From: Thermoproteota archaeon
Lineage (GTDB): Archaea; Korarchaeota; Korarchaeia; Korarchaeales; JAOZGB01
Assembly (NCBI GenBank): GCA_037917685.1
Contig: JAVCBU010000019.1
Location: 1 to 32,172, forward strand
Length of the DNA: 32,172 nt
Reading direction: 5' to 3'
Numbering within the stretch: the stretch's first letter is position 1; each line of letters starts with the position of its first letter. The notes under the pieces are model-generated. The model saw only the letters and a program-made list of their open reading frames with translations, did no database searches and was not told the origin of the DNA. The translations under genes and the position numbers were made by a program. This document shows, in pieces, positions 4,503 through 32,172 of this stretch.

Positions 4503-4605
4503 AATACCCTAAAGTTATACCCTACCATACTACTTAAATTTCTTACTAGGAGAGTGCTAATATCCGGGAAACCAACTCTAACCATGAAACACAGAAATGC
4601 TCGAT

Positions 4606-4642
4606 CTTTCAACCCCGTTTAAGCCGGTTTTGCTTTTGAAAC
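4606..4642 (-). CRISPR. Solitary CRISPR repeat (1 mismatch)
   Basis: CTTTCAACCCCGTTTAAGCCGGTTTTGCTTTTGAAAC, 36/37 identical to the array repeat. No second intact repeat nearby. Confidence 0.9.
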
Positions 4643-4783
4643 ATAGCTCACACCAGCCATGGTAAAAGCTGGTGAAAGATTTCAGCGCGCGATTCAGCTC
4701 AGTACAACTCTTCGGAATAGATACGGGAAATCTTATCCTCTCTCCTCTAAAAAGTTTTCGCGTGCGTGAAGCCTGGCAGATGC

Positions 4784-5590: not shown

Positions 5591-6478
5591 TCACTTTAGG
5601 AGGTGTTCTGCGTATTGGTTAATTGTGAGTTTCTGTATATGTTCTGGTTTTTGTAGTAGGGCTTTAATGTTTGCGATTTGTTCCTCTATGGTTTGTGGTT
5701 GTGGTTTGATTTTGAGTATTGTGGCGGTGCTTTTCTCCGGGTTTATGATGAGGGAACCGTATCCGGCTGTTTTTAGTCCTCCTACTTGTATTCCTTTTTT
5801 CAATGTGTATTTTAGAATGTTTGCTAAGAGTTTGGCTTCTGGCTGGCCTGGTGTTATGTTGTCTGCTATGATTTTTGTGCGGAATGTTAGTTTGGGTGAT
5901 GGGGGTATGTACTCTATTATATAGAGTTTTCTGGGGTCTACGGTTCTTGTTTTTCTTGAGATTGCTGTTGAGATGTATGTTTTTATCGTCCATTCTCCCT
6001 GTGGCACTGCGTCGTGGATTAGGAGTTTTGAGGCTATTCCCTTTGCTCCGAATAGCCTGCATATTGGGCAGTGGTATGCGAGGTATAGGTCTACCCTGTC
6101 TTGGGGGCTTAGCTCATCCACCTGTTCGGATGTCCAGATCTGTTTTAGCCATTGTTCTGCTTGGTGTAGGTGGGTTTTCAGGTCTATTTTGCTGTTTTCC
6201 CTTTTGATGTGGGTGTCTTTGAGGTGGGCTTGTGTTGCTATGTCTGTTGTTGGGTCTCCATACTTCATTGTTTTTGCTATTCTTGAGGCTAGGTGTCTGA
6301 GTGTTCCTTTTAGACTTTCTGCGGGTATTATTGGTGTTTCTTTTCCGTTTACTGTGAGTGTTAGGAGTTTCTTCCTCGGCCCTTCCTGGCCTGCCCCTAT
6401 GTGTAGGGGTGTTTGGGGTGTTAGGTGTAGTTCTATTATTGTTCGGCTTTCTAGGGCTGGGTTAGGGTGGGAGTTCAT
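5591..6478 (-). CDS. cas7: Type III RAMP, Cas7 group (Csm3/Csm5-like)
   Basis: TPLHIGAG, IIPAESLKGTLR, CPICRLFG and G-rich loop QVGGLKTAGYG. Confidence 0.88.
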   Translation of the reverse strand: MNSHPNPALESRTIIELHLTPQTPLHIGAGQEGPRKKLLTLTVNGKETPIIPAESLKGTLRHLASRIAKTMKYGDPTTDIATQAHLKDTHIKRENSKIDLKTHLHQAEQWLKQIWTSEQVDELSPQDRVDLYLAYHCPICRLFGAKGIASKLLIHDAVPQGEWTIKTYISTAISRKTRTVDPRKLYIIEYIPPSPKLTFRTKIIADNITPGQPEAKLLANILKYTLKKGIQVGGLKTAGYGSLIINPEKSTATILKIKPQPQTIEEQIANIKALLQKPEHIQKLTINQYAEHLLK

Positions 6479-7547
6479 AGCCGTACACCTCCAGGATGTT
6501 TAGTCCTAGCTGGTTGAACTGGGGTATGCCCTTTAGCTCGGCTTCTAATAGCTTGTTAGGGAGGTCTGGGTTTTCCTCCTCTATGTGGTAGAAGTATAGG
6601 GTGCCTGGTGCTGCTGCTGTGATTGCTATCTTTGGTAGGTTTGTTCTCTTACTGTATCCTGAGACTGTTTCTATGCCTGTAAGTATGTAGTTTTTACCTG
6701 TGTAGTGTATTGGCTTTGGTTTTACCCGCTTTATTTTTAGGTTTGGTTCGGGGCTTACTGTCAGCTTGTCCTTCGAAGCTGTTATTTTGAATGTTGGTGA
6801 GAGTGCTCTTAGGATTAGGGTTTTTCTCATGTCCTTCAGGGTCTCTTCTATCTCCTTTTTCCTCTTCTCGGTGTAGTCTGGCTCCTCTCTTATCTTTACT
6901 CTTGCTTTTCCAAGCCCTCTCGATGTTCCTCTACCGATTCTAACCGTTATTTCCTCTGCTTCTAGTAGTTGGGATAGTTTGTCCTCGGGGTCTACTATTA
7001 GGCTTTGGAATTTTATCCCGGGTGTTAGGGCTATGTAGCTGTAGAATAGTCCCACTTCTGAAGTTCCCAGTATTCTGTTTATTCCCACTGAGTGGGTGAC
7101 TGTGTGTTTGAGCTGTACGGTTTTCATCTCCGCGCCGGTTTTTATGTAGGGTTTTCCCCCTATGCTTTTGAGGGCTAGGGGGTGGTTGTTTGGGCATTTT
7201 GTCTGGGATGTCCAGCTGTCGAGGTTGAAGGCTGCCATTTTCCTTCTGCTGTCGAGCTGCGGGTCTATGAAGGTGGCTCCGCATATTTTACACTTGTAAG
7301 TTAGGCTGTGGGATGGCTTTGCTAGGACCCCGTCTACCATGGGGTAGGCTGGGTGGAATGTGATGACTGGCTTCTCAGCCTCTCCCCGTACTTTCTCAGG
7401 GTTTTCCGTGTAGGTGCTTCCGAGGATTGCCCCTCTGACTGTGGATCCTGGTAGGTAGGTTCCGGTGTGAGATAGTATGTTTCCCTCGGAGTATGTTGTC
7501 AGTAGTGTGGGGGATTCCAGGGTTATCTCGGCCTTATATACTTTCAT
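6462..7547 (-). CDS. csx10: Type III-D RAMP Csx10 (Cas5 group)
   Basis: YLPGSTVRGA, FHPAYP, CKIC/CP insert, RIGRGTSRGLG and C-terminal PGTLYFY...GLN. Confidence 0.8.
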   Translation of the reverse strand: MKVYKAEITLESPTLLTTYSEGNILSHTGTYLPGSTVRGAILGSTYTENPEKVRGEAEKPVITFHPAYPMVDGVLAKPSHSLTYKCKICGATFIDPQLDSRRKMAAFNLDSWTSQTKCPNNHPLALKSIGGKPYIKTGAEMKTVQLKHTVTHSVGINRILGTSEVGLFYSYIALTPGIKFQSLIVDPEDKLSQLLEAEEITVRIGRGTSRGLGKARVKIREEPDYTEKRKKEIEETLKDMRKTLILRALSPTFKITASKDKLTVSPEPNLKIKRVKPKPIHYTGKNYILTGIETVSGYSKRTNLPKIAITAAAPGTLYFYHIEEENPDLPNKLLEAELKGIPQFNQLGLNILEVYGYELPP

Positions 7548-8190
7548 CTTTTAGCTCACCCCATATTAGGCTTATAACTGGGTCTGATAGTAGGGCGTCG
7601 GGTATGCGGCTTTTCGGATCTATTTTCACGGATATCACGCCCGCCCTTCCTATTCTCTCATAGTTCATCTCGACTATTGCTGCTAGGAGTAGCCTCGCCT
7701 CTTCGAGTGTTAGGTTTTCGGCTTTCAGGTGTACCGTGAACCTATTGCCTATTGGGAGGTAGCTCACTGTGAATAGGGCTCCCTCCTCCGCTGTTCTTGT
7801 TTTGTCGTTTATTTTGACGTGGGTTTGTATTTCGGCTTTCCTTCCGTTTAGGTATGTGTCTTCAACCGTTACCTTGCTTGGCCTCCCGGGCTCTCCGAAG
7901 ATCTGGCTGTCTATTGTCCCCATGATCTTTTCGGGGTGTGGGGAGTGTGAGACGTTTGTGCGGCCGAGTAGCCCCGCAACCTTTATGAGGGAGGTTCTCA
8001 GCACTCCCTTTAGGCTTGAGCCTGGGATTGTTAGTGTTGTCGTTCCGTCGGCGTTCATGGTGTAGTGGAAGGGTATGTCCGACTCTACCTTGGATGAGAG
8101 CCCTCCTATCCCTATGTTCAGCTTTTTCTCAGCTGTCACATGAAGATATAGATCTAGGTTGTACCTTTCCATCTTAGAGACCTCCTCCAA
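7534..8190 (-). CDS. csm3: Type III RAMP, Cas7 group (Csm3-like)
   Basis: LNIGIG, SDIPF, IPGSSLKGVLR, IFGEPG, VKINDKTRTAEEGALF. Shortened G-loop (RIGRAG). Confidence 0.85.
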   Translation of the reverse strand: MEEVSKMERYNLDLYLHVTAEKKLNIGIGGLSSKVESDIPFHYTMNADGTTTLTIPGSSLKGVLRTSLIKVAGLLGRTNVSHSPHPEKIMGTIDSQIFGEPGRPSKVTVEDTYLNGRKAEIQTHVKINDKTRTAEEGALFTVSYLPIGNRFTVHLKAENLTLEEARLLLAAIVEMNYERIGRAGVISVKIDPKSRIPDALLSDPVISLIWGELKDESI

Positions 8191-10795
8191 GTATTTTTAT
8201 TATGTGGTACTGGTCTATGAGGTTGAATCTTAGCTTCTGCTCCCTCTGATCGAGGCATAGTAGGTTTTTCACCATCTCTTTCATGTAAGGCTTCCCTCTC
8301 TCCTCCTGCCTTTTTGCGTGGAGGATTTTTATCCTTATCGAGGTGTCTCCTATGAGTGTTGTGTGCATCACGTCTAGGATGCTGTTCCTCAGATCCCTCA
8401 GCCTTTTCTCGCCTTTTAGGATCCCGATTGTTGTTAACGGCTCTTCCGCCTTGCTGAGGTCTAAGTGTTGGATTATCATCTCTAGGAGCCTGAGTATTGA
8501 GTCCGGGTTTCCCTTAGAGCTTAGCGTGTATGGTTTTTTAAGCTGGCTGCTCATGCCAGAATTGTATTCTATTGTCATTACATGCTCCAGGGAGTCGGGG
8601 GTCATTACTCCACCGTCAGCTGTGTAGAAGGCTATGGCTCCTCTGAATGTGCTGCTTGGCTCGTCAACTCTGCTCTTGTGTATTTCATATGCTTTCTCAC
8701 GGCTTCCCCTCTTCGCTATTTCGTCGAGGAGATAGCCTGCTGAGTCGTATAGTGGTATGATTGGGTGTTTTGGCTTCCCAACGGCTATTCCGAAGCTTAG
8801 GGTTGACTTGTACCCCATCTGCCTGTAGTAGTTGGATGCCATGTGAAGTGCGAACTGGACTGTTAGGTATGAGGGTAGTATTACTGTTCCATCGTCTCCA
8901 CCCATGTACATCATGCCGAGGACTGTCCTCCTCCAGTCTTCTATGCTTATATTTTTGAGCTGGGTGAGGAAGCTTCTGAAGGCTTCCTTAATGCTTCTAT
9001 CCACTCTTATGGACCTTTCAACCATGTCTGTTATCGAGGTGCTTGAGGCTATAAGCTGGGACATCATGTTTCCGTCGAACCTAACAACAGCCATGGCGGG
9101 GTACTCTGAGACCTCTCCAAGCCGATCCCTTTCGACGCCTGCGATGTACTCGAGCATCTTCTCCCCGAGTCTGTCGCTCCATTCTAGGCCTATGTACCTG
9201 CATTTCCACTTGAAGTGGTAGTTGTAGCCTACATTCTTCTTCCACAGGCATTTCTCGCAGACCTGTTCCTCCTGCTGGGAGGCGTACTCTGACTGGCACC
9301 ACTTGCACTTCATGTATATGTTGGGGGATAGCTTACCCCAGCCTGAGGTGAACTTTGAGATTGAGATCTCCTTGTCTATCGTGGTGTTTACCTTGAAGAT
9401 TGTGTCGTATATGGGTGAGGATCCGTAGTTCAGCCTGATGTCTAGCTCTTTAGCCGCTGTTTCCACCACCCCGTCTAGTACGGTGTTGGAGATTTGGGAT
9501 GGTAGTATTAGTGTTATGTTTCCGCCGCCGTAGGATATGACTGTTTCGGCTGGTAGTCTGAACTTCTCGGTTAGCATGGAGGGTATGGACACGTAGACTG
9601 CTAGATCTACTATTCTGCTGCCTCCTACGAGTGCTGGGAGCTTATTGCTTCTTATAAACCTCTGTATCCCCGCGACGTCGAGCCTGGAAATCCTCAGCTT
9701 TTCAGTTACCCTTCTCCCTTCGGTGGTGAATATTGGGTTATCAAGCCCCATGCTGGACATGTTTCTGCAGTAGTCTTCTGTTAGCCTGAGGGTCATTTCG
9801 AAGCCGAGTGCTTCCCAGAAGTCCCAACCCCATAGGGCCTCTTCTCTCCCTACACCCTTCTCCCTACAGTACTCCTCCAGTTTCCCCTCAAACTCAGACC
9901 TCAGGCTTTGGGAGAGAGCTTTAGGGAATAGTGTTTGAACCCTGTCTATGTTGCTTGCTATTTTATCAGCCTCTCTAACCATCCTTCTCAGCTCCTCATA
10001 GCCCTCTATCTTCTCTCCTGAGATAAGTTTCGCAGCTTTGTCCACTATTTCCTCCGCCTCGCCCTCTATGAAGTCTTTAAATATGTTGTACAGGGTTTCG
10101 GCTGAGACCTTGTGGTGCTCGTGCCACCTCCTGATGTTGAACTTTCCTATGTCATGGAATATTGAGAGCAGTCTTAAAACCGCTATCTTCAGCTGCGTCT
10201 CAGGGTTCCCCATGAAGCTTGCAAGATTATCTTGCGGATTGTAGTTTTCCTCTATGAAGATGCAGGACGATATTGCGGAGACGAGGAGTAGATGTAGAAG
10301 TAGAGATGAAGTGTTTGAACCCGGCCTCGTGTCAGCCGGGAACATTAGGCATTCGAAAAGCCTGTTCCTAACATTGTCTGCGAACAGTCTGTTTGAAGGT
10401 GCCTCGGGGATTAACTTTATAACATCCTCGCTTTGGATGTATCGCTTCAGGCCTTCACGCGTATATGGCGGCTCGAGCACGTCCGGGATCCTAACTCTGG
10501 GCTTTGAATAGTAGTATAGTGCGAGTTGTGGTGACAAGACTACGCCGGGGACAGGGTCGAAGTATAGGAGCCCTTTAAGGTAGAATACTAGTGCGTCTAT
10601 GTATGCGTTTAGACCTTGGGCGTCGCCTATTCTATCTTTACCCCCGTTGGTGTAGTCTTCAAGAAGCCTTCTCATCATTCCCACCAGATCTCTAAGCATG
10701 TTCTCTCCTTCCTCTGCATCTACGATCTTGTAGTAGGCTGGTCTCCCGTTAGCCCCTGGGATTGGGATTATGAAGCCCTTAGCTACCCTCTCCAC
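8174..10795 (-). CDS. cas10: Cas10 with HD nuclease and intact Palm cyclase motif
   Basis: PADTRPG, SSLLLH, FHDIGK, EADKIAS, DVAGIQRFI, CKWC/CEKC, FDGNMM and YMGGDD. Confidence 0.95.
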   Translation of the reverse strand: MERVAKGFIIPIPGANGRPAYYKIVDAEEGENMLRDLVGMMRRLLEDYTNGGKDRIGDAQGLNAYIDALVFYLKGLLYFDPVPGVVLSPQLALYYYSKPRVRIPDVLEPPYTREGLKRYIQSEDVIKLIPEAPSNRLFADNVRNRLFECLMFPADTRPGSNTSSLLLHLLLVSAISSCIFIEENYNPQDNLASFMGNPETQLKIAVLRLLSIFHDIGKFNIRRWHEHHKVSAETLYNIFKDFIEGEAEEIVDKAAKLISGEKIEGYEELRRMVREADKIASNIDRVQTLFPKALSQSLRSEFEGKLEEYCREKGVGREEALWGWDFWEALGFEMTLRLTEDYCRNMSSMGLDNPIFTTEGRRVTEKLRISRLDVAGIQRFIRSNKLPALVGGSRIVDLAVYVSIPSMLTEKFRLPAETVISYGGGNITLILPSQISNTVLDGVVETAAKELDIRLNYGSSPIYDTIFKVNTTIDKEISISKFTSGWGKLSPNIYMKCKWCQSEYASQQEEQVCEKCLWKKNVGYNYHFKWKCRYIGLEWSDRLGEKMLEYIAGVERDRLGEVSEYPAMAVVRFDGNMMSQLIASSTSITDMVERSIRVDRSIKEAFRSFLTQLKNISIEDWRRTVLGMMYMGGDDGTVILPSYLTVQFALHMASNYYRQMGYKSTLSFGIAVGKPKHPIIPLYDSAGYLLDEIAKRGSREKAYEIHKSRVDEPSSTFRGAIAFYTADGGVMTPDSLEHVMTIEYNSGMSSQLKKPYTLSSKGNPDSILRLLEMIIQHLDLSKAEEPLTTIGILKGEKRLRDLRNSILDVMHTTLIGDTSIRIKILHAKRQEERGKPYMKEMVKNLLCLDQREQKLRFNLIDQYHIIKILGGGL

Positions 10796-11111
10796 GGTTC
10801 AACACCTCTTTTAACCTTAAACCTCCAAATTTGGGTAGCGAGTCATGGGCGTAGTAGTTGTCTATAAGCTTGTTAACCTGCTTGGTGGTGAGAGGTACGA
10901 TTCTGTACTGACCGTCCTCCATGAGCCATGCCAGCCCGCTCTCACCGCTGATAGCATAGCCTAAGACTCCAAGATCTTCAGGCAGGCTATTTTCTTCTAG
11001 GTCTACGAGCTCGGTGGCCATGTCCTCGCGTACTACCATTATTAAGGGATACTTTTCCTCCATGATCTTCTTTTTTAGATCTTCAAGGCTTCCCATCATT
11101 TCTCTACACAC
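10779..11111 (-). CDS. Small type III-D subunit (Csx19-like by position and size)
   Basis: 110 aa, between a RAMP and cas10 and overlapping both. No diagnostic motif recognised. Confidence 0.55.
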   Translation of the reverse strand: MCREMMGSLEDLKKKIMEEKYPLIMVVREDMATELVDLEENSLPEDLGVLGYAISGESGLAWLMEDGQYRIVPLTTKQVNKLIDNYYAHDSLPKFGGLRLKEVLNRGEGS

Positions 11112-12057
11112 CCGGCTGGCCTATCGAGCTCCAGAGCCCGCTCTTCACGAGTGTATCCCTGGCTTTTGCTGTCAGCTGGCTGACCCCTATCCCCCCCAGC
11201 ATTTTTGTAAGGTGTTCTTCGAACCCTATTAGCTTGAATTTTAGAGGTCCAAGCACGTATCTACCCTTGTATTTAGTGTTCCCTATGGATGGTTGGAACC
11301 TGTATTTATACATTCCAAGGAGTATAGGCTTCCCATGTATTATCCCAAGTCCTAAGAGGAGTAGGCCAAGGTCTAGGTAGGACATGTTTACCCCGGAGAT
11401 GCTGAGGGTGAACCTTGAGCCTGGTACTGCTGCCTCAACCTCAAGGTCTTCAAGTCTTACCACGTCTCCCTCCGTCATCGCCGCGTCGGAGAAATAGACC
11501 CTTGATCCTAGGTTGGGGTTGCCGAAGAGGTCGCAGACGTAGCAGGCGGCGGCACCCCTACATTGATCCCTCACGTAGGTGGCATCCTTCCCCCACATTG
11601 CCTCGTGCCCCTTAGATGGCTGGACTGCTGGTGAGGGATCCTGAATTATGTAGCATGAGAACGAATGCAGACGTCCACCCATCTCGAAGGGCTTAAGCAA
11701 GTGCTCTATCCTTGAGCGTATCGCCCCCTTCAACGAGGAGCCTGGGATGAAATACGTTCCATCCACGTATCTCGGGAACTCTCCCCTTAGACGCTCATAA
11801 GCCAGAATCTCCCTAACCCTCTCTATGAGTTCCTCCTCTCTAATCTCCCCCTTAAGGTAGCTCTCAGCTATGTTTACGGCTTTTAAACGTACTTCCCCGA
11901 TATTAAGTATTGTTGTTGCGGAGGCTGTTGCTAGATAGCTATCCGCGGGGATGGAGGCCTCCAGTTCTAAGATAATGTTAAACCTATCCGGGAGTGTTCC
12001 ATCTCTCGGCGTCGGCCTCCTTCTTATAACCCTTACCGGCTCTCTTAACATATTCAT
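11104..12057 (-). CDS. cas7: Type III RAMP, Cas7 group with insertion
   Basis: FIPGSSLKGAIRSRIE, ACYVCDLFG, SRVYFSDA. Helical insertion near the N-terminus. Confidence 0.85.
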   Translation of the reverse strand: MNMLREPVRVIRRRPTPRDGTLPDRFNIILELEASIPADSYLATASATTILNIGEVRLKAVNIAESYLKGEIREEELIERVREILAYERLRGEFPRYVDGTYFIPGSSLKGAIRSRIEHLLKPFEMGGRLHSFSCYIIQDPSPAVQPSKGHEAMWGKDATYVRDQCRGAAACYVCDLFGNPNLGSRVYFSDAAMTEGDVVRLEDLEVEAAVPGSRFTLSISGVNMSYLDLGLLLLGLGIIHGKPILLGMYKYRFQPSIGNTKYKGRYVLGPLKFKLIGFEEHLTKMLGGIGVSQLTAKARDTLVKSGLWSSIGQPGV

Positions 12058-12886
12058 CCCACGCTTTAATACTATTCTTCAAAAGCTCCCCGGCTGTACC
12101 CCCTACCGGGATCTCTGTATCATACTTGTCGAGCGGTTCAAGTTTACTGATCTCTGATAGAGTTACAGGACCCTCATCACTGTAGATGATTCCAGAAACA
12201 CCTTCGGCATGGATTTCAACGGTTCCAAAGCCCCTTGACTTGAATCCCCCTATTTTAACGAGCCCGACGTTTATAAGCCTTAAAACAGTGGAGAAAAGGC
12301 CAAGCCCATAGTTTGGTATATTCTTAAAGGTTACTGTTCCCTTGAACACGCATCCAGGCTCAACATACTCAACCGTGTACAATGCCCCCCTCCTCACCTT
12401 TCCACTCCTTCTATCTATGGCTATACCTGTCTTTACCCCTCTAGCGATTCTACTTGGATCCTCAGGGTATGCCTCTCCGAGAAAGATGTGTGACAGGTAT
12501 CCTGCCGACCCATATAGCTTGCATATGAGGCAGTAATTTCTCAGAACACCTTCGATCTGGCTTACATTTCCACCCTTAACAGCTATTTTAAGTTGGTTGG
12601 AGTATAACTGTTTGCATTCCTCTCCAGCCTGGCATATGTTCTTAATGTTGGAGGAGCGTGCAACAAACTCTGATGCCGACCTAAAGACTCCCTTAAGGCT
12701 GCTACCAGGAATGTAGGGTGTATCAGTCCCGCCGTAGTTTATAGTGATAACAGGCAGGTCTATCGGTGATGTGGGGCTTACACCCTTTCTAGAGCCTATT
12801 CTTAAAGGGCTCTTGAGAGTATAGGATAGTTCAAACTGGAGCTCCCTAAATATTCTAAGATGAGAGTACCATGGCACATTCAACAT
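11984..12886 (-). CDS. csm3: Csm3 (Cas7) backbone RAMP
   Basis: SPLRIG, IDLPV (catalytic Asp position), YIPGSSLKGVFR, CLICKLYG, IGGFKSRGFG. Confidence 0.92.
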   Translation of the reverse strand: MLNVPWYSHLRIFRELQFELSYTLKSPLRIGSRKGVSPTSPIDLPVITINYGGTDTPYIPGSSLKGVFRSASEFVARSSNIKNICQAGEECKQLYSNQLKIAVKGGNVSQIEGVLRNYCLICKLYGSAGYLSHIFLGEAYPEDPSRIARGVKTGIAIDRRSGKVRRGALYTVEYVEPGCVFKGTVTFKNIPNYGLGLFSTVLRLINVGLVKIGGFKSRGFGTVEIHAEGVSGIIYSDEGPVTLSEISKLEPLDKYDTEIPVGGTAGELLKNSIKAWDEYVKRAGKGYKKEADAERWNTPG

Positions 12887-13623
12887 TTACCCCCTCCCAC
12901 AATCTTGGGTATTAGCTCCTTAACGCTTGAAGTTGAAATTTCACCGTCCTTAAACTCCTCCTTCACTATATCCGCAATCTTAAGCTTTACGAAGCCAAAC
13001 CCTATGCTTCTCCCACCGCCCACCTGGATTCGGCCCTCTGAAAGGAGTCTGAGAATGTATCTAAGTATCCTTGCCCTAACACAATCCTCTTCTAGGTTTA
13101 TGCCTTCAACTCGCATCTTAAACGAGAATTCGTGGCCTGGAACCACATATTCGATATCGAAGAGTTTTTCGTGGTGATGTCCTCCTGTAACCCTGTTTAT
13201 CGCAACCCTAGTTCTCGTCTCTGAAACCTTCTCTGGAGGCCTCCCGGAAAGCCTTGCATCCATAAATGTCACATGTGAAGCTATGGTCGGCCCCCCGAAA
13301 ATCCGGCATATAACGCAAGGCTCACACTCATCTTCACCTTTTCTCTCCTGCCACGTAAGCTCCCCTTCATCACCTTTTGGATCTAGGATGTCGCATACAC
13401 GCTCTCCAAGCGACCTGGCGTACCTCTCAGCTTCCGACCTCAACACCCCTTTAAGTGTGCTACCAGGAATTAATGGTAAGCCACTTTCATCCCTTACTAT
13501 AGGGTTGTCTAGGGTTCCCATGGGACTATTTCTCCCTGAGCCCACAGCTAGGGGTGTTATGTTCATTAGAGTTCCCTTAATCTCATAAACCGTTAACGGC
13601 TTGTCAAAGTCTCCACAGGACAT
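12880..13623 (-). CDS. csm3: Csm3 (Cas7) backbone RAMP
   Basis: TPLAVGSG, LDNPIVRD, IPGSTLKGVLR, CVICRIFG, VGGGRSIGFG. Confidence 0.92.
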   Translation of the reverse strand: MSCGDFDKPLTVYEIKGTLMNITPLAVGSGRNSPMGTLDNPIVRDESGLPLIPGSTLKGVLRSEAERYARSLGERVCDILDPKGDEGELTWQERKGEDECEPCVICRIFGGPTIASHVTFMDARLSGRPPEKVSETRTRVAINRVTGGHHHEKLFDIEYVVPGHEFSFKMRVEGINLEEDCVRARILRYILRLLSEGRIQVGGGRSIGFGFVKLKIADIVKEEFKDGEISTSSVKELIPKIVGGGKC

Positions 13624-13627
13624 TCCA

Positions 13628-14023
13628 TCACCTAGTTAAGCCTGTTATGAACGAATCGATAAGCTGTTTGAAGCTTCTTACATCCCGCGGAACTCTTAAT
13701 TTGCTATCGTAGATCCATTTTAAGATAGTTAGGTACTTCATAACGGCCGCCCTCAATTCCTCTGGATTTTGGGAAAACCTTTCATGGATATTTCTAAGCG
13801 ATCGCATCATCTTCACACCCACCTGCCTTTCTATCCCTCCTCTACCTATCTGCCTTGCAATATACATCAGTAGCAGCCTTAGGGCGTCGTTAGGGTTGCT
13901 CTCCCCCTGAAACACCGACAGCAGGTTGTTCATGGTAGTTTTATGGATATCAGTGATATTCACGCTGTCAGCTGCTGCTATATCATAGATTTCCTCCTCC
14001 ATAAACTTCCTGAACTCCGACAT
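13628..14023 (-). CDS. csm2: Type III small subunit Csm2 (Cas11)
   Basis: 131-aa all-helical protein (LLLMYIARQIGRG...YLTILKWIYD), first gene of the RAMP operon. Confidence 0.75.
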   Translation of the reverse strand: MSEFRKFMEEEIYDIAAADSVNITDIHKTTMNNLLSVFQGESNPNDALRLLLMYIARQIGRGGIERQVGVKMMRSLRNIHERFSQNPEELRAAVMKYLTILKWIYDSKLRVPRDVRSFKQLIDSFITGLTR

Positions 14024-14123: not shown

Positions 14124-15347
14124 TTAAGGTTTTGGGATCATGGTTGCTCTTTCATCCTTTGAAAGTATATATGTAGCTATGGCCGAGTGTAGTGTTGTCC
14201 CTCCGTAAATGTATACTAGGGGATAGCTTCTAGCTCTTTGGAGTATGTATTTTATGGTTTCTTTAATCCTTATCCTGTCAGTTCCAGATGAGAGTATTAT
14301 CTTTCTAGCTCCTCCAGTCTCCTTACTGTATTTCAAGGCTATATACGTAGAGAGTAGTGATAAAGGTGTTGCTACTAAGATTAACTCTCTTATGCTCACA
14401 TCTTTCTCTTCAAGCTTGGATGTTATGGCTGTTAAGTCTAGGGGGCTGGTCTGCTCCGTGCTCTCTATTGCCAAGATGATTTCACCAGGTGGGACATGCT
14501 TCTCGATATCTTGAAGTATTTTTACGAGTTTAGCGAATACTCTCCCGAAAGTTTTGTCTCCTATAGTGGTTATGCCACATCTGCACTCGCCAATTTTAGC
14601 TGTGTACGTTGGCTCACCACCCTCACTCCTCTCTAATTCTAACTCTATGTGCCCGTTCACGTTCAGATGTAAGAGTGTAAGCAGGTTTATGCTTTCTTCC
14701 CTGAGTTTGTCAACTTCACAGTCTTTAACCTTCCATATTGTTGTGGTTAGTCCTCCTCCGTATACTGTTGGTGGGATCTGGGTTGCAACGAGCATGCTTG
14801 AGGCCAAGGCTGCGAGGCTTCCATGTTTCTCACTGTCCTGCTGCTTGTACTCCTCTGGAATGTTTATGCCTAGGTGTGGTGCTATGTCTTGCATGAAGTT
14901 GTACTGTGCTACTACGAATTTCTGGCTCATTCCGAACCTATGGATCCCAGTGGTCAGTGCGTGGAAGGTTAGGGGGGTGACATGGATTGTTTCAGCCGGC
15001 CTTTCTGTCAGTTTTCCAGATTTTAGGGCTTTATGGATATAGGGGCTTTCGTATCCCTGCCTATATGTGGTTTTTACTTCGTCTACGCTGAGACTGAAGA
15101 GTGGGTTGGCATTAATGTATTCTATTGTTTCGGGGATCCTGGCTCCCCTTTCTCTGTCCCTTAAGTCGACTGTTATGTTCTTCGTGATGCTCCCCGTTTT
15201 GGGGTCTATTTTTAGGTTTAGTAGTAGTTCAATGGTTCTTTGCTGGTGGAGTGTTGTCCACAGTAGGTTTGTGGTGAGTTTTACCCATTCATCTATGTCT
15301 TCTGGCTCTGTTAGGCTGTATGTTAGTTCTACAGCCTCCTGTTTCAT
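14124..15347 (-). CDS. Uncharacterised protein with a C-terminal CARF-like domain
   Basis: IILAIESTEQTSP...RELILVATPLS...LVYIYGGTTLHSA fits the CARF beta1 / llxT / (T)GG pattern. The N-terminal ~280 aa are unrecognised. Confidence 0.55.
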   Translation of the reverse strand: MKQEAVELTYSLTEPEDIDEWVKLTTNLLWTTLHQQRTIELLLNLKIDPKTGSITKNITVDLRDRERGARIPETIEYINANPLFSLSVDEVKTTYRQGYESPYIHKALKSGKLTERPAETIHVTPLTFHALTTGIHRFGMSQKFVVAQYNFMQDIAPHLGINIPEEYKQQDSEKHGSLAALASSMLVATQIPPTVYGGGLTTTIWKVKDCEVDKLREESINLLTLLHLNVNGHIELELERSEGGEPTYTAKIGECRCGITTIGDKTFGRVFAKLVKILQDIEKHVPPGEIILAIESTEQTSPLDLTAITSKLEEKDVSIRELILVATPLSLLSTYIALKYSKETGGARKIILSSGTDRIRIKETIKYILQRARSYPLVYIYGGTTLHSAIATYILSKDERATMIPKP

Positions 15348-15348
15348 T

Positions 15349-16650
15349 TTAGTTCACCCTTACTATCGTGTATTCTACGTTTAGCTTTGCCTGGAAGTCT
15401 GCTAGAAGTTTATCCGGGTTTGTTTTCGTCTCTGATAGCCATCTTAGGAAACTGCTGGTTAGTCTGAGCTTTGGTATTGCAACGTATAGAGGTCTTTCCC
15501 CCATTTTTTTAATGGTTGCCACCACCGCTTCCTTGGGGAACTCTGAGACCACTATGATCTCCGAAAAGCCCATTTTTTCAAGATCCTCGGCGAAGGCACT
15601 CCAATCCGGTTCTTTTGCTGGGTTAATGGGTTCAGAGTAGACTTTAAGACCTTGTTTTTCAAGTTCCTCTTTGATCTTTTCAGCTGCTTCCCTAGATTCC
15701 TTCCTGCACGTGTGTACTACGGTTATGGTTGCCTGAGCTTCAGCTTTCCTGTTGGAGATCCATTTGTGGATGCTTTTGGCTGTTTTCACAGCAAGCGGTG
15801 CGGGCAGGGTGGGTGTTAGGACTGCTATGCTTATATGATCATCTGGCGCCGGCCCGCCTATTTCCTGAGCGTCTGTTTCCTGAGTGTCTGTCTCCCCAAT
15901 TTCTCTGAACTCTATGTTTTGGCTTGATTGTTGTGGGTATACTATTTCCCATTTCCGCTTTGTCGTATTGTTTCCAAATACTATGAGTTTCGCCCTTGTC
16001 TCCTCTGCAAGTTTGGGTATTGCCTGAGGGGCTGCGTATAGAATTGCTATGTTTAGGTAGTTGTTGAACTCCGAGTCTTCTTCGAGACTCGCTGTGTCCT
16101 CGTACATGCCCCTATACTGTTCTAGTAGGTTTTTTAGGGTGAGCGAGGGTTTAGTGTCTCTTGTGGTGTGGGATGAGACTGGCATTCCCGCCCTTCCAAG
16201 GTCGGCTCCAAGTGTGATTGAGAGTGTGTGGAGCTGCGGCGGGGGGATCAAATATTTTCTTAGATCCTTCACTATTTTCCCGGGCTCTCTCTGGCCTGCC
16301 TCCTCCGGATCTATTGGCCCCGCTTCTTCATCGTCTCCAAGTTCCACGCCTATTTTCAACTGTAATCCGTTAATCTCCAGTATTAGAAACCAATCTATCT
16401 CAAGTTGTGCCGGGAATGCTGCGACTAGGTCGGGATGGAATAGTTGGAAGGATGGCTCGATAAGCCTTATCTTAAACTCTGAATTTTGGATGTCCATCAT
16501 TCTATATGTGTATACGCATATTTTTAAGCGTTGTTGTATAGTATCTTGTGTAAGGCTTGTTTGGAGGAGGGTGGCCTCATGACCGAGGCCAGGGAACCCG
16601 GCAACTGGGTTCCCCTTCCCTCCTTCTCCTATTTTAAACATGGCTAGCAT
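15349..16650 (-). CDS. Uncharacterised protein: restriction-endonuclease-like N-terminal motif + CARF/Rossmann-like domain(s)
   Basis: EIDWFLIL...IGVELG...KDLRKY, then ISIAVLTPTLPAP...TVVHTCRKESREAAEKIKEEL. Start codon uncertain. Confidence 0.5.
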   Translation of the reverse strand: MLAMFKIGEGGKGNPVAGFPGLGHEATLLQTSLTQDTIQQRLKICVYTYRMMDIQNSEFKIRLIEPSFQLFHPDLVAAFPAQLEIDWFLILEINGLQLKIGVELGDDEEAGPIDPEEAGQREPGKIVKDLRKYLIPPPQLHTLSITLGADLGRAGMPVSSHTTRDTKPSLTLKNLLEQYRGMYEDTASLEEDSEFNNYLNIAILYAAPQAIPKLAEETRAKLIVFGNNTTKRKWEIVYPQQSSQNIEFREIGETDTQETDAQEIGGPAPDDHISIAVLTPTLPAPLAVKTAKSIHKWISNRKAEAQATITVVHTCRKESREAAEKIKEELEKQGLKVYSEPINPAKEPDWSAFAEDLEKMGFSEIIVVSEFPKEAVVATIKKMGERPLYVAIPKLRLTSSFLRWLSETKTNPDKLLADFQAKLNVEYTIVRVN

Positions 16651-16665: not shown

Positions 16666-18150
16666 GTGGTTTTGATTTCCGTGGGCTACCCGCCTGTTTC
16701 GCTGCTGTATTTTGGGAGGGTTGCCGTTTTGAAGTCTGCTCCCAGGGTGGAGGGTTCTGGGTGGATTATGGGCAGGTACGCGTCCAATTTCCTGCGGGAG
16801 GTGGAGAGCCGTGTCTGTGGATGTCTTTCTAAATGTGATGTGTCTTTTAGCATGCTTCTGAAGAGGGTTCCTTTGATAGGTTTTTCGGGTAGGATTTACT
16901 CAGAGTTTCTTGGTGCTTTTAGGTGTCCAGAATTCCCCCTGGTTGAGGTTAGGGTTTACTCCCCTGGCGTTGTCTCTGTCTGGGTTAAGGTGGTTTCCTA
17001 TCTCAGTGACCTCGACGTGCTTTCAAGGGTTTGGGCCACGTTCTGCAGGAAGGTGGCTAAACCGTTTGTCTCCAGGGTTTTTGGAGGAGACGGGTTTCTC
17101 CGTGGTATTGGCATGCCAGGTGTCCTGCGATTTCAGGGTTTCTGCACCACCTTTTACTCGTTTGTACACTTAATCGGAGGCCAAAGCCTTAAGGCTACAT
17201 CCGGGAAGGTGTTGTACTGTCTTGTAAATCCTCTTGGCTGCCAGAGTGTGAGTGAGGAGTATATTGTGAAGAACCTGCACGTCGAATCCGGCAAGTACGC
17301 TGGCGACCGCTTTGCATATTATCAGACTGGCATCCTGTTTCAGATGGCTGGTTTCAGAGGCAAGAGGAACAAGATTACAAGGAGGCGGGTTAGAGAAATG
17401 TACAAGCTTTCCGCCGATCTTGCTCTTGCAGCTCAGGCGTTCTACGGCGGCATTTCAAAGCCAGACTTCGACAATGACACCCTCTATAAGAGTTTACTGT
17501 GGCTTTCACCCCATTTCTGGAGTTCAGACTTTTATGTCAGGAGAAGATCCTTCCTCTCAGCCTACAGGCGTATAGCTAAAGGGATAAAACTTGATGAGTA
17601 TTTTAATAGGTACAGGCGATTCTTAACCTTGTTCTCCGACTTAAAGGTTAGGAAAACAATTGAGGAAATCAATTCCACAGCCTTGAAGCTTAGGATAGAG
17701 CCTCCTATTCCAAGATTCCCAGCTGGACGTGGTCTCTCAGGTGTTTCGAGGGTTCTAGTTGAATGTTTAATCTATAAACATCTTATTGAGGAGTCTCTGA
17801 TCCCCGAGGGAAAGGTTGGGAAAGCTCTTTTCAAACTATTGTATGGGGAGGATGTATCCAGCTACGAGGCTAACATCAGGAAGTTTAACGCTACATACAT
17901 GAGGAGAAAGCGGAAAGTTGGACTGTGTGTGACGGAGCTTTCAGTATCAACCGGGAAAAGCAAGGCTACACTCTACGAATTTATCAACCATGTCCATGAG
18001 TATACCCGTGGTATGCTTATGGTTGATGAGGATACATTGGGGAATAGGAAAGTTAAGGTTTTAAGGGTAAACACTGAGCACCAGGATGTCAGGAATCTAC
18101 TCTGGATTTACAATTCCAGGGTTAGGGAGATTGTTAGGAGGCTACGATGA
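16666..18150 (+). CDS. Uncharacterised protein with a C-terminal winged HTH
   Basis: 494-aa ORF ending GLCVTELSVSTGKSKATLYEFINHV...GNRKVKVLRVN. The true start may be the ATG at 16768. Confidence 0.65.
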   Translation: MVLISVGYPPVSLLYFGRVAVLKSAPRVEGSGWIMGRYASNFLREVESRVCGCLSKCDVSFSMLLKRVPLIGFSGRIYSEFLGAFRCPEFPLVEVRVYSPGVVSVWVKVVSYLSDLDVLSRVWATFCRKVAKPFVSRVFGGDGFLRGIGMPGVLRFQGFCTTFYSFVHLIGGQSLKATSGKVLYCLVNPLGCQSVSEEYIVKNLHVESGKYAGDRFAYYQTGILFQMAGFRGKRNKITRRRVREMYKLSADLALAAQAFYGGISKPDFDNDTLYKSLLWLSPHFWSSDFYVRRRSFLSAYRRIAKGIKLDEYFNRYRRFLTLFSDLKVRKTIEEINSTALKLRIEPPIPRFPAGRGLSGVSRVLVECLIYKHLIEESLIPEGKVGKALFKLLYGEDVSSYEANIRKFNATYMRRKRKVGLCVTELSVSTGKSKATLYEFINHVHEYTRGMLMVDEDTLGNRKVKVLRVNTEHQDVRNLLWIYNSRVREIVRRLR

Positions 18151-19713
18151 CGATACCCTTTCCAGGGAAGTGTTAAGCTCCTCCAATGTCCTGTCGATGT
18201 CAAACATTTTCTCCCTGGGGTTGTAGAGGTTTAGTGGAACCTGCCAGCCCGATGATTCGGCGCTTATCACAGGCTGAAACAGTATGATCTTGTCCTTTAG
18301 CAGGAGTCTTGAAGCATTTACAACAGCCCTGGTTAGGTAGGGCTTTGTGTAGATTATCCCCCATATCCCATCGAACTGGCCTCTGACATATGTAAGTAGG
18401 ACTGTGGAGACAGATGAAAAGGTGTTTGATACGGTTCTAAAAAGTTCCTCCCGCTCCCGGAGTAGTATTATGGATGGGTCTCCCAGGGCTACCCCCGTCG
18501 GGTATACAACATTGTATAAGACGTTTTCTTTCCGGAGTTTCTTTATCATGCTTCTAGTCGTCCAGTAGCTTAGTCCAAGTTTTTTACAAAGCTTAGAGGG
18601 CGATGACTCTCCTGAACAGTGAATCATGTTTATCAGTTTTAGCTCGTTCATGGTTGGCTTGTAGTAATGACCTTCAAGCTTAGGCCGTGGTTTTATCGGT
18701 AGATGGGTATAGTATCTCTCGCACATCTTTAGGAGTACCTGCTCCGGGCTTATATCCTCTATGAATATGCTGTAGCTCTGCCTAACAACAGTGGAGAGTT
18801 TTAGCGAATCGTATTTTTCTATGATTTCCTGTAGCTTCTTGTTGTAATCGTAGGGTAGCAGGATTGATATGAAGGTTGGATTGGCGGATGAGAGTTGGAA
18901 TATGCGGTATGTGAAGGGGAACTCAGCGAAAACCTCCATGTATCTGTTACTATTCTCTTCTATTATCAACAATAAGGTTATTAGTCCGATCTTTCTGAAA
19001 TTCACATTTATAAAGCCTGTTATCAGGTTCATGGCTCTAAGCCTACCTATACACCTGTATACGGTTGACTTGGCATGCCTGGACATCTTAACTATATCCT
19101 TTACCTCTATGGAATGATGGCGGCTTATTAGACTAAGAATCCTCGTTTCCGCCTTTGAAAGTGAGGGTGTAAGATAGGATTGAAAGTTTAGGATGACCTC
19201 ATAGTATATCTTGAAGTCTAGGAATGGAAGGACTTCCGCAAATCTCCTCAGAAGCTTTACGCATGATAATACTGCGTCTAACCCTTTACTTGCGATAAAG
19301 CTCTTCATGATTTTGACTCCATAGTAAGGCTGGAGGAGCGGGATGAACACTGGCATAGAGCTTTCCTCCCACCACTTCTCAACATCATCCCTATGGCCTT
19401 CGTGAAAGTAGGCATATGCCCAGGCAAGGTCCGAGTATTGTGGAACCTGGTCCCACTTGTAAGGAATATACTGTCTGAAAGCCTCCCTACGCAGGGTAAA
19501 ACTGACGAGTCTACTGTCAAGCTGGGATGATATTGCCATCTTCTTACCCGAATACTTAACCCCGGAGTAATAGCCTTTTTCAACAGGAAAATTCTCTACT
19601 GTTATCTTTTCTGGAATATGCCTTATTGGAGTTAGATTCAACAGTTTACCCGCCTTTACAATTTCCTGTTTGAAAAGCACGTATAACCCTTTATCTCGCA
19701 ATTTGGGAACCAA
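18142..19713 (-). CDS. Large transcriptional regulator with two Lrp/AsnC-like wHTH modules
   Basis: LSKAETRILSLI...AKSTVYRCIGRLRAMNLI...NFRKIGL and NELKLINMI...LGLSYWTTRSMIKKLRKENVL, each followed by a beta/alpha domain. Confidence 0.75.
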   Translation of the reverse strand: MVPKLRDKGLYVLFKQEIVKAGKLLNLTPIRHIPEKITVENFPVEKGYYSGVKYSGKKMAISSQLDSRLVSFTLRREAFRQYIPYKWDQVPQYSDLAWAYAYFHEGHRDDVEKWWEESSMPVFIPLLQPYYGVKIMKSFIASKGLDAVLSCVKLLRRFAEVLPFLDFKIYYEVILNFQSYLTPSLSKAETRILSLISRHHSIEVKDIVKMSRHAKSTVYRCIGRLRAMNLITGFINVNFRKIGLITLLLIIEENSNRYMEVFAEFPFTYRIFQLSSANPTFISILLPYDYNKKLQEIIEKYDSLKLSTVVRQSYSIFIEDISPEQVLLKMCERYYTHLPIKPRPKLEGHYYKPTMNELKLINMIHCSGESSPSKLCKKLGLSYWTTRSMIKKLRKENVLYNVVYPTGVALGDPSIILLREREELFRTVSNTFSSVSTVLLTYVRGQFDGIWGIIYTKPYLTRAVVNASRLLLKDKIILFQPVISAESSGWQVPLNLYNPREKMFDIDRTLEELNTSLERVSSS

Positions 19714-20110: not shown

Positions 20111-22135
20111 ATGGCAGCCTCCTATGTCAGGACAAACCTTGGGAAATGGGGGAAGCAACGCCAGACTTTTTGGGAGCACGGCTACCTAACACATGTATTC
20201 CGTAGAACCTTGAACTATCCTGCAATAGTGACGTTGAAGTCCGCTGTAAAATGCGACGATATGGAAAGGCTGATCGACAACTATCTGTCTCTAACAACAG
20301 TTGAAGACTACTTTCACGACTATGACAAACTATACGTGCCAGCTGAAATGTTAAATCCTGTCGATATAGCTAGGTTCAAAGATCACGGTAACATAGATTC
20401 TGAAAGGAACAGGAAGGCCCTTAAACTACTTATTGAGGACTTGAACACCCAAAGATTCATACATGTTAAAAACATAGAAAGAGATATAGATATCGTATTC
20501 GCAATTTCAGAGGGGTTTATCGAGAGGGCTTTAAGGGCTGCAAACTTTTCGCATGAGGGTGACCGGACACCTGAGAAATTTTCTATGGTTGCCGGTGTGC
20601 TTAAGGAGTTTGTAGAGGCCCACGGCTGCCTTGTTGACAACGCCTATTTTATCGATTTTGCTAGGATCCATATGTTCACCCTGAGAGTCGCAGATTCTAT
20701 AGCATCAGCCTACAGGAAGCCAGCTTTCAAAAGCGATGTAACCGAGTATCTAAATATAATAGACCAGAAGCTTGGAAAATACGTATTTCATGTTTCTTCG
20801 GTATTGTTTAATCCTGTTTTTATCGAGTCCTTAAGGTACGATGTTACAAAGGGGTACTTTTACGTTTACAACAGGGTCTACAAAGCGCTGGACAGCTGGA
20901 TAAAGGATAAGGGCATAATAGTTGAGGATAGGCTGTCGCTGATAGTGGCATTATGGCTTGGGCCTGAGGAGAACGGGATCCAAGGGATGGCTTCTCAAAT
21001 TGCTGGTGAATTATACCTTACAGACGTTCATGAAGACATATTTCACTGCGAGGAACAGATAGTTGACCCTAGAGCAGATCCTACAGGTTTTGACAGTGAA
21101 TTAAGGATGAAAATACTGGAACTAATGCTTAAGTACCCGCCCGTAGAGCATGCAGACCTAATGCCTTGTAACTCGTGCGGTAGACCAGTTGTCGGTAGGC
21201 TCTGGAAAAGTATAACAGAATTGGGAAACTATATCGGGGATGAAGCAAAAAGCAAGGCTAAGGAGGCTGGGGAGATGAGGAGCCTTGAGACAATGGGAAA
21301 TCTCGGCTACATTAAAACTGTTTCGGAAAGGCTCTATGGTATTAGCTCATCCCAGATTTGTAACTCAAGTATTCCCCTCTGTAACTCGTGTAGCAAGTTG
21401 ATCAAGGTATGGGCTGAAAACTATACTCTTCCTAGGAAGGGCGAGATCTTATTCACCGTTTACATACCAGAGGTAAATAGGGACTCGTACAGGACAACGG
21501 AGGACATGAAAATCACAGGGGAACAATCAGACATGCTGGCATCAATCCTCTATAGCTACCATCTCAAACAGCTTCTTACGACCTTAATCTATAACAGCCT
21601 GGAAGTTAGAGCCTCGGAGATGATTGGTGTTTCAGCGATAACTATACCCGTCCTCTTTTTGTCAGAGGTAACAGAGCCTATAGAGCAGGTGCTGAAAGTT
21701 CTAATGGATAATGATCTGCTGAGGGTGAAGCTTCCTGATAGTGTTGTTGAGTATAAGCCTAACTTCGGCATGAGGATAGGGGCAGGTCCGATGTCGGCTG
21801 ATGGGAAAGTATGGGATCACTCGGTACTGCCGGGGGTATACGATGTAGAAACCTATGTTAGAAGGATGAAAAGAGCGAAAAAGCTGTATGATAGTTTGAA
21901 TATCCTTCCGAGATCGAAGAGGGAGGATTTCTTATCCTATCTCTTCGCCCTTGAAGGATGTAATAATAGAGTAGCTCCCGCTATAGGGAGGCTTTTCAGG
22001 ACTGTACCAGAGGGGAAGGAGAAAGCTGTAAGGAAGCGTATTGATGGATTCTGCGAAGTAGCTGTGGAGGCTGCCAGGAACCCGGGGAGCGTGTATGATT
22101 TGAGGATAATTCTATCAAATATTAGAGGTGGGTGA
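20111..22135 (+). CDS. Type I-D-like large subunit with N-terminal HD nuclease (divergent, short Cas10d-like)
   Basis: Cas3-HD-type motifs TFWEH, FHDYDK, KDH, SHEG and RVADSIAS, plus the Zn-binding pair CNSCGR / LCNSC. First gene of an operon with an HD-less cas3. Confidence 0.7.
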   Translation: MAASYVRTNLGKWGKQRQTFWEHGYLTHVFRRTLNYPAIVTLKSAVKCDDMERLIDNYLSLTTVEDYFHDYDKLYVPAEMLNPVDIARFKDHGNIDSERNRKALKLLIEDLNTQRFIHVKNIERDIDIVFAISEGFIERALRAANFSHEGDRTPEKFSMVAGVLKEFVEAHGCLVDNAYFIDFARIHMFTLRVADSIASAYRKPAFKSDVTEYLNIIDQKLGKYVFHVSSVLFNPVFIESLRYDVTKGYFYVYNRVYKALDSWIKDKGIIVEDRLSLIVALWLGPEENGIQGMASQIAGELYLTDVHEDIFHCEEQIVDPRADPTGFDSELRMKILELMLKYPPVEHADLMPCNSCGRPVVGRLWKSITELGNYIGDEAKSKAKEAGEMRSLETMGNLGYIKTVSERLYGISSSQICNSSIPLCNSCSKLIKVWAENYTLPRKGEILFTVYIPEVNRDSYRTTEDMKITGEQSDMLASILYSYHLKQLLTTLIYNSLEVRASEMIGVSAITIPVLFLSEVTEPIEQVLKVLMDNDLLRVKLPDSVVEYKPNFGMRIGAGPMSADGKVWDHSVLPGVYDVETYVRRMKRAKKLYDSLNILPRSKREDFLSYLFALEGCNNRVAPAIGRLFRTVPEGKEKAVRKRIDGFCEVAVEAARNPGSVYDLRIILSNIRGG

Positions 22136-22136
22136 G

Positions 22137-22649
22137 ATGTGTGAGGGTTTACTTCCTTCGTCCGCTTGGGACTTGTTTGAAAGGCTTGATAAGATTGAGG
22201 AGTTAGATGAGGATCAAATAGCCTTCACGGTCGCGGGAGTCTTAGCGCTTGCAAGCCATAGTGCAGGACTACTCTCGTCAAGCAGCCCAGGCGAAAACTT
22301 CTCATTGTTCTTCAGCTTTACGTCATCTATAGATGAAAAACTTGATCCAAAGAGGACGTTTAGAAGGCTATGCGGCTCATTTCTCAACTATTCGATGGAC
22401 AAGATAAAGAAGCCGTTAAAGGTAACCCCATGTGTCGCCGACAAGTCCATCAAGAAACTAATGGTTAGCCTTGAAAGGGCTTTGACGAGAACAGACGATA
22501 ATACGGCTAGAAAGGTGGTTAAAGGCATGCTAGGCGTAAGAGACGCGGCTTACCTGTATGTTTACATGCCCGTTGAAAAGCTGAAGGAGATATTCAAGGA
22601 CGGGAGGCTTGTTTTAAACTGCCCAAAAAAGGATGAAGGAGGTGATTAA
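22137..22649 (+). CDS. Putative small subunit (Cas11-like)
   Basis: ~170-aa helical protein between the large subunit and cas7. GAGGTG RBS before the ATG at 22137. Confidence 0.55.
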   Translation: MCEGLLPSSAWDLFERLDKIEELDEDQIAFTVAGVLALASHSAGLLSSSSPGENFSLFFSFTSSIDEKLDPKRTFRRLCGSFLNYSMDKIKKPLKVTPCVADKSIKKLMVSLERALTRTDDNTARKVVKGMLGVRDAAYLYVYMPVEKLKEIFKDGRLVLNCPKKDEGGD

Positions 22650-22650
22650 T

Positions 22651-23958: not shown

Positions 23959-23974
23959 CACTAGGGATCAGCAT

Positions 23975-29136: not shown

Positions 29137-29402
29137 GGGTGCCGGAGGCTGAAAGTTCAGCCTACAGGGTTGTCAACGTAGACCTCCATTCGCCAAGGAC
29201 TTCGAGCTTCTAATATGCGAAATCTTCCAGCATGGGTGGCAAGCATAATATCAACCCTGAGAGAGGAGGAGAATACAGGCTGAAAAAGGGAAAAAGCCAA
29301 AATGAGAGTATTACTGAGAACTTCCCTTCTAAGAAAGTTTCCAGCCAGCTACTACCATCCAGAATTCATTAAGAAAATGGTTGCGAAAATAGTTCCCAAG
29401 CG

Positions 29403-32025: not shown

Positions 32026-32172
32026 GTTTCAAAAGCAAAACCGGCTTAAACGGGATTGAAAGTCCATGAAGCTGCCTGCGATACAGCAGTCACCCCTACG
32101 TTTCAAAAGCAAAACCGGCTTAAACGGGATTGAAAGAGTATGTTTCTCTGGGGGCGGCCGTCATAGTAGAAG
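32026..32172 (+). CRISPR. CRISPR array B, leader-proximal end (probably continues beyond the window)
   Basis: Repeats at 32026-32062 and 32100-32136, a 37-bp spacer at 32063-32099, and the next spacer from 32137. Confidence 0.96.

Follow-up and report, generated by a model that had tools for sequence, protein, structure and literature searches.

Two genes beside a type III-D CRISPR operon

A 32,172-nucleotide stretch of contig JAVCBU010000019.1 from a Thermoproteota archaeon (here, the window) carries two genes, A and B, that lie head to tail on the minus strand, 1 bp apart; a gap of 100 bp separates them from csm2, which follows in the same orientation. We refer to the upstream gene of the pair as A and the downstream gene as B. 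An earlier reading of this DNA, made from the letters alone (the sequence-only reading), had described this arrangement with open reading frames (ORFs) of 407 and 433 amino acids, and our ORF calls agree; the motifs that it listed, EID, IGVELG, KDLRKY, NIAILYAAPQAI, and LIVFGNNTT, are all present in the 433-residue translation. The length given for the upstream protein holds for the longest ORF (positions 15349 to 16650, minus strand) but most likely not for the protein itself. Two close homologs of A begin at about residue 51 of that ORF, a TATA-like box that may serve as a promoter element precedes the ATG at position 16500, and the first ATG of the 433-residue ORF leaves only 15 bp to the divergent gene at 16666. 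Because of these features, we read A as a protein of, most likely, 383 amino acids, and A residues are numbered from M51 throughout (Table 1).

The cas10 gene of the adjoining operon encodes a protein in which both the GGDD motif (MYMGGDDGT) and the HD motif (FHDIGK) are intact. With these motifs retained, this Cas10 is expected to produce a nucleotide signal. The region is flanked by 37-nt CRISPR repeats.

Table 1. Positions of the A-B pair, its predicted domains, and neighboring features in the window
Feature	Coordinates	Strand	Description
Gene A (P0002 from 51st codon)	15349..16500	-	383 aa; PD-(D/E)xK-like N-terminus, helical middle, C-terminal CARF domain
A nuclease-like core, residues 9-55	16336..16476	-	E15, D24, E34, D36, E53; G55
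A middle segment, residues 141-177 (incl. NYLN, KLIVFG)	15970..16080	-	Predicted to pack on B CARF domain
A CARF domain, residues 220-383	15352..15843	-	Invariant S269, E320, K323
Gene B (P0001)	14124..15347	-	407 aa; N-terminal domain and C-terminal CARF domain
B N-terminal domain, residues 1-287	14487..15347	-	Mixed alpha/beta, then helical (AlphaFold2 secondary structure)
B CARF domain, residues 288-407	14127..14486	-	Invariant E298, Q299, D304, T327, P328, D357, G383
TATA-like box ttaaaaatat	16518..16527	-	Read from sequence; 18-27 nt upstream of ATG at 16500
csm2 (type III-D small subunit)	13628..14023	-	131 aa; first gene downstream of pair; PADLOC Csm2 CAS-III-D, E 1.3e-14
cas10	8174..10795	-	Pfam Cas10-Cmr2_palm2 1.3e-13, HD 1.9e-6
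Remainder of type III-D effector operon	5591..13623	-	Several Csx7-type RAMP genes and a Csx10-like gene
Gene C	16666-18150	+	494 aa; no family match; weakly similar to third gene of A-B-C operons in G011, G018
Gene D	18142-19713	-	523 aa; two winged-helix regions; E 1e-63 to G011 counterpart

An obligate gene pair in type III CRISPR loci

Sequence searches linked neither A nor B to a known family. No Pfam or NCBIfam family was matched by either protein at an E value of ≤0.01, and no PADLOC model at ≤0.001; relaxing the Pfam threshold to ≤1 across all members of both families yielded only scattered weak matches. Searches of PDB chain sequences, family profiles included, gave nothing meaningful for A or B, and a protein atlas gave no usable match for B, whether queried whole or as residues 1 to 285. 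In Pfam, NCBIfam, PADLOC, and the PDB, neither protein thus matches a described effector by sequence; a full-length match of this kind was one of the outcomes that would have spoken against the sequence-only reading. Relatives are few. An index of 5.8 billion clusters held just two for each protein, a word-index search with alignment A5 returned only the three close A homologs, and when a B profile was run with HMMER against all of 1.84 billion representatives, 18 proteins scored at an E value of ≤0.001 (11 at ≤1e-10 and 2 at ≤1e-30). In the ten clusters that were looked up, all named members are called "hypothetical protein," except for one 99-aa fragment labeled FrlB-like. The literature covered, including passages of PMC6546367, PMC12669027, and PMC12409355, describes neither a two-gene heterodimeric CARF effector nor the A or B family; subscription journals and the CARF classification of Makarova et al. 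2020, whose supplementary family lists could bear on novelty, lay outside this scope.

Related loci were drawn from whole genomes and, by a search with sub-alignment A6 of a 21-sequence alignment, from a collection of species genomes (3 loci among 36 candidate stretches) and from metagenomes (23 among 62). Hidden Markov models of A and B, run over 928 ORFs from 27 sources, identified 28 B genes and 26 whole or partial A ORFs. A lies immediately upstream of B on the same strand in 24 of the 28 cases, with gaps of -77 to +1 nt except in one locus where A is split (L025, 303 nt). The remaining four B genes start at a contig end, such that the pair is present in 24 of 24 cases where upstream DNA exists; these 24 include near-identical copies (L018, L019, and L020; L022 and L023). 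Because A and B recur together in every related locus with upstream DNA, their pairing is obligate and far beyond chance. Among 43 genomes of the phylum, B was found in four and A in the same four, at the same places; in a broader sample of 401 genomes, 4 contained B. The pair is also carried by public records titled Candidatus Methanodesulfokora washburnensis and Candidatus Geocrenenecus huangii. In some copies, A is divided into two ORFs while B is intact (G027:C171, as L002, L016, and L023; L022; and L025). One such copy has an in-frame TAA, and L025 has the 303-nt gap; these split copies may be decaying genes or assembly errors.

Co-occurrence with type III loci, which the sequence-only reading gave as a test of its proposal, extends from the window to its relatives. 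In 15 further loci, we scanned 81 of the 163 called ORFs, namely the larger ones near the pair (in L033 to L038, mainly the largest ORF and the ORF after B); together with the window, L006, L007, and L014, these make up 19 distinct loci. Cas10 was detected with Cmr2 or Csm1 models (E values of 1e-23 to 1e-46) in 12 of the 15 and is present near the pair in 16 of the 19. Type III genes, of subtypes III-A, III-B, and III-D, lie near the pair in 17 of the 19, including a 4.9-kb contig with Cmr4, Cmr5, and Cmr6 (L036); the other two loci without Cas10 (L026 and L027) are contigs of <4 kb. Across the phylum, 21 of the 43 genomes contain Cas10, including all four that carry the pair. We conclude that A-B occupies a recurrent ancillary gene location in type III CRISPR loci of more than one subtype.

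A tandem Csx3/Crn3 gene (~215 aa, two domains) adjoins the pair in 12 of the 19 loci; in two of those without it (L028 and L035), the contig stops right after B. Crn3 is a ring nuclease for cyclic tetra-adenylate (cA4). A survey of complete genomes found that, where a locus contains both a ring nuclease and an effector, the effector is always cA4-dependent (PMC12409355). It also reports 31 loci with a ring nuclease and no known effector (PMC12409355). Since the family usually travels with Csx3/Crn3, we propose cA4 as the ligand of the pair.

The window and its nearest kin, G011 and G018, share two other conserved neighbors of the pair, genes C and D (Table 1), which are confined to this subgroup without Csx3. 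Gene C comes after B within a single operon in both G011 and G018 but is inverted in the window. The helix-turn-helix (HTH) regions of the gene D product resemble those of CasR/Csa3. Elsewhere, in three Cmr loci (L006, 6406 to 8850; L017, 11253 to 13750; and L032, 8555 to 10975), a gene for an AAA/ABC-type ATPase with a weak MADS3-like match lies between cmr3 and A-B, along with two small ORFs of no recognized family. In L014 (G018:C8), a Csa3-like CARF-HTH gene (12407 to 13093; TIGR01884, E value of 1.2e-12) lies between that genome's two A-B pairs.

The genome of the window encodes a second CARF protein on another contig (L041, G000:C15:228-644), cut by the contig end, which matches PF09651 (2.5e-28) and TIGR02619 and, weakly, the ring-nuclease model NF040951. 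No Csx1 was found in searches of this genome. The pair, which the sequence-only reading named as the best candidate output of the type III system, is therefore the best candidate receiver of the Cas10 signal, but with this second protein it is not the only one.

Further features of the window lie outside the operon. The 37-nt CRISPR repeats form short blocks at 19 to 1351, 4605 to 4645, and 32026 to 32136, the copy at 4605 being solitary and degenerate. A different unit, of 29 nt, is present three times between repeat blocks with the same 73- to 74-nt period (879 to 1054), and a perfect 61-nt duplication is found at 1097 to 1157 and 2746 to 2806. In the plus-strand region 20111 to 26901, four consecutive ORFs (674, 173, 441, and 313 aa) matched nothing in Pfam, NCBIfam, or PADLOC; after them come a Cas3' helicase (691 aa) and then, at 27195 to 29990, Cas4-like, Cas1, and Cas4 genes. 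The region probably encodes a very divergent type I effector module.

Predicted folds and the A:B complex

In fold searches, the C-terminal domains of both A and B superpose on solved CARF domains of the Rossmann-like alpha/beta type, which agrees for each protein with the CARF-like domains named earlier. B was modeled with AlphaFold2 from the 21-sequence alignment at high confidence (predicted local distance difference test [pLDDT], 90.6; predicted template modeling score, 0.91). CARF proteins fill the first 16 rows of its fold search, ahead of other Rossmann folds, if VC1899 is counted among them, which we take to be a CARF protein. The residues of the B CARF domain that are invariant in 39 B-family sequences (Table 1) sit in loops after strands. 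In the N-terminal domain, R137, Q148, T201, and R269 are invariant in the same 39 sequences, with H105 (36 of 39) and K109 (34 of 39) nearly so. Foldseek comparison of the whole B model with the PDB and with viral structures yielded nothing convincing (template modeling score of <0.3), a result that covers the N-terminal domain only within the whole model and does not by itself mark a new fold.

The AlphaFold2 model of the A monomer is of lower confidence (pLDDT of 59.7 overall and ~80 for residues 222 to 383). CARF proteins occupy the first 8 rows of its fold search, again ahead of other Rossmann folds, with the ring nuclease Crn1 as the top match. Seven residues, E34, D36, E53, N147, S269, E320, and K323, are invariant in 19 A sequences, and E15 and D24 are kept in every member with an intact N-terminus. 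The N-terminal pattern, E15 ... P-D24 ... E34-x-D36 ... E53-x-(K55), runs over three predicted strands. As read from sequence, it contains the acidic E...D...E part of the PD-(D/E)xK nuclease pattern, with a spacing similar to that of archaeal Hjc-type enzymes; weak matches to NERD (PF08378) were obtained for 3 of the 19 A members (best E value, 0.083). In two A homologs (L026, 494 to 1762; L027, 419 to 1690), a ~60-residue N-terminal extension starts with a Cys-rich CxxCxxxxC motif; this may reflect an over-called start, the first start codon after a stop having been taken.

Two other claims about domain architecture fared differently. The domain order, called inverted in the sequence-only reading, does place CARF last in both A and B; it is not unprecedented, however, since CARF also lies late in the chain of Cam1 (8t64) and of one Csm6 (9w3u). 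A second Rossmann-like unit, suspected in A around the LIVF stretch, was rejected: the region consists of low-confidence helices in the monomer, and in the complex the LIVF segment lies against a CARF strand of B.

We predicted the A:B heteromer, together with three controls, from full-length A and B with their alignments. The interface score, ipSAE (interaction prediction score from aligned errors), was 0.88, 0.86, and 0.86 for A:B, versus 0.00 for the best of the three controls; the heterodimer through CARF domains that had been proposed earlier is thus favored by a controlled prediction. The ipSAE mark used for reference is reached by 58 of 80 solved complexes and by 2 of 110 mismatched pairs, and it is only roughly valid here because we used our own alignments. 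The models contain 202 to 213 contacts between A and B, of which 177 to 180 are confident, and at least 88% of contacts recur between runs. The pLDDT is 85 to 86 for the partner chain and 73 to 76 for the other chain, and A is better modeled in the complex than alone, although different programs were used and the values are only loosely comparable.

The predicted interface has three parts. In the CARF-CARF part, A residues 319 to 328 (including E320 and K323) face B residues 327 to 329, 347 to 360, and 381 to 386 (including T327, P328, S354, D357, G383, and T385). In this prediction, the CARF domains of A and B pair, with conserved loops forming a putative pocket. The contacts of lowest predicted error are those between A 168 to 173 (the KLIVF stretch) and B 335 to 352, including strand 347 to 352, by which A may add a strand to the CARF sheet of B. 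Finally, the "PD" loop of A (20 to 27) touches B residues 136 to 138 and 202 to 203, beside the invariant R137 and T201/T202, which suggests that the two N-terminal domains may share one functional site.

A candidate two-subunit receiver of the Cas10 signal

Taking the obligate pairing, the neighborhoods, the CARF folds, and the predicted interface through conserved CARF loops together, we consider it rather probable that A and B, each as one subunit, make up a single heteromeric ancillary receptor-effector of type III CRISPR systems and that A-B is, probably, a new kind of alarm-signal-controlled defense effector. In the mechanism that we propose, binding of target RNA would cause the GGDD Cas10 to make cyclic oligoadenylate (cOA). 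A and B, co-translated from overlapping or abutting genes, would pair through their C-terminal CARF domains to form an asymmetric heterodimeric pocket, in a heterodimer or a higher assembly. From the neighborhood, we infer that this pocket would bind one cOA from the neighboring Cas10, most likely cA4. Binding of the ligand would rearrange the two N-terminal domains and thereby switch on the output, which could come from A as a metal-dependent nuclease, from some activity of B, or from the two combined. Csx3, where present, would reset the signal. A more far-reaching version, which we regard as possible but doubtful, would make A-B the first heterodimeric CARF receptor, with one cA4 read by two CARF domains from separate genes. 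The output would then be a composite site in which the E/D/E core of A is completed by R137, Q148, T201, and R269 of B, the B N-terminal domain would be a new effector fold, and the window copy, which has lost the lysine and has C and D instead of Csx3, may be rewired to a different output.

Several observations weigh against the heteromeric receptor-effector. The classified CARF families (Crf1-11) are represented in this analysis by Pfam, NCBIfam, and PADLOC profiles, and the CARF domains of A and B match none of them; no CARF family appeared even at an E value of ≤1 among 19 A and 21 B members. For A, universal-stress-protein folds score just ~2 Z units below CARF, and its N-terminal domain is modeled only as three strands and a short helix at a pLDDT of 30 to 60. 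CARF homodimers are abundant among solved structures, and part of the A:B score may be remembered CARF dimer geometry. The motif lysine of A, K55, is present in 11 of 19 members and replaced by G or E in the other eight; the window copy reads ELG, so the glycine that the sequence-only reading saw in place of the expected lysine is indeed there. This makes classical nuclease activity of the window copy uncertain. Acid-for-lysine variants do occur among restriction enzymes, for example in BamHI. The window, G011, and G018 form a subgroup without Csx3 beside the pair, and a search of the genome of the window, which is 95% complete, did not detect Csx3 either, a weak negative because control genomes gave no signal. 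For the window copy, the argument for cA4 is therefore indirect.

If A and B were instead separate CARF homodimers with their own tasks that merely share an operon, A might act as a nuclease that cA4 activates and whose domain order is reversed, while B might be a ring nuclease, a regulator, or a second effector. To our knowledge, homodimers and internally duplicated proteins account for nearly all CARF proteins characterized so far; homology between the A and B families is not detectable (hhalign probability, 0.4), and the Crn1 match of A would also fit such an arrangement. We nevertheless think it unlikely, given the pairing in 24 of 24 places, the overlapping genes and shared distribution, a heterocomplex score of 0.86 versus 0.00 for controls, ~200 contacts that reach beyond the CARF domains, and the poorer modeling of A alone. 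Alternatively, the pair could damp or relay the signal rather than act as a toxic effector, as a heteromeric ring nuclease, a cOA sponge, or a sensor acting through the neighboring HTH protein, the nuclease-like fold being inactive at least here. The missing lysine (8 of 19 members, including the window) would be consistent with this, as would the Crn1-like CARF domain of A, whose invariant Ser and Lys lie in loops after strands (Crn1 has a Ser-Lys catalytic pair), and the presence of a conserved HTH protein, without Csx3, beside the pair in the window, G011, and G018. However, the dedicated ring nuclease Csx3 already stands beside the pair in most loci (12 of 19), which argues that Csx3 is there to shield the cell from the action of the pair. 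The acidic residues E34, D36, and E53 of A and the four invariant N-terminal residues of B are also conserved as expected of working sites, and a damping or relaying role is, in our judgment, quite improbable.

Least probable is that the C-terminal domains are generic Rossmann- or universal-stress-protein-like nucleotide binders with a role outside cOA signaling, for example as type III accessory subunits, maturation factors, or cargo of mobile defense islands. The missing sequence-level CARF membership leaves room for such a role, and the module moves between III-A, III-B, and III-D loci. Against it stand the fold searches, in which CARF proteins lead the rows for both proteins, and the linkage to a cyclase-competent Cas10 and the cA4 ring nuclease Csx3, as expected of cOA receivers.

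We therefore describe A-B as a probable CARF-type ancillary effector of type III systems that lies outside the profile libraries of the classified CARF families. Among known proteins, it would work most like Can2/Card1 and Can1. Can2/Card1 (Crf4 family; a cA4-activated CARF and PD-(D/E)xK protein) is a homodimer of a single polypeptide with CARF first and the nuclease last. In A-B, by contrast, both proteins carry CARF at the C-terminus and A has its nuclease-like motif at the N-terminus, the predicted complex joins two unrelated polypeptides, the N-terminal domain of B is different, sequence similarity is absent, and the window copy lacks the lysine. Can1 (PDB 6sce) is a one-chain monomer with two non-identical CARF and two nuclease-like domains. 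A-B resembles it in having two unlike CARF domains, but these are split over two genes, the domain order differs, and the N-terminal domain of B is not recognizably nuclease-like. Crn1 (Sso2081, SSO1393) is a small homodimeric CARF protein (plus a winged HTH) without the 220-residue N-terminal part of A, and A does not match NF040581. Cam1 has a C-terminal CARF domain, as do A and B, but its N-terminus is a membrane helix and it forms homo-oligomers, whereas the N-terminal domains of A and B are large and soluble.

Type III CRISPR signaling has been understood through a homodimeric or internally duplicated CARF sensor that controls a fused, known enzyme. The A-B family is rare and absent from the profile libraries used for type III annotation, and as a result such loci are now scored as having a ring nuclease and no effector. 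Given the thermophile-type archaeal origin of the family, its proteins should be tractable for biochemistry and structural work. If the heteromeric receptor-effector is correct, its two unlike CARF subunits would mean that separate proteins, too, can assemble the kind of asymmetric sensor found inside Can1, and A-B would add a further effector domain to the type III repertoire.

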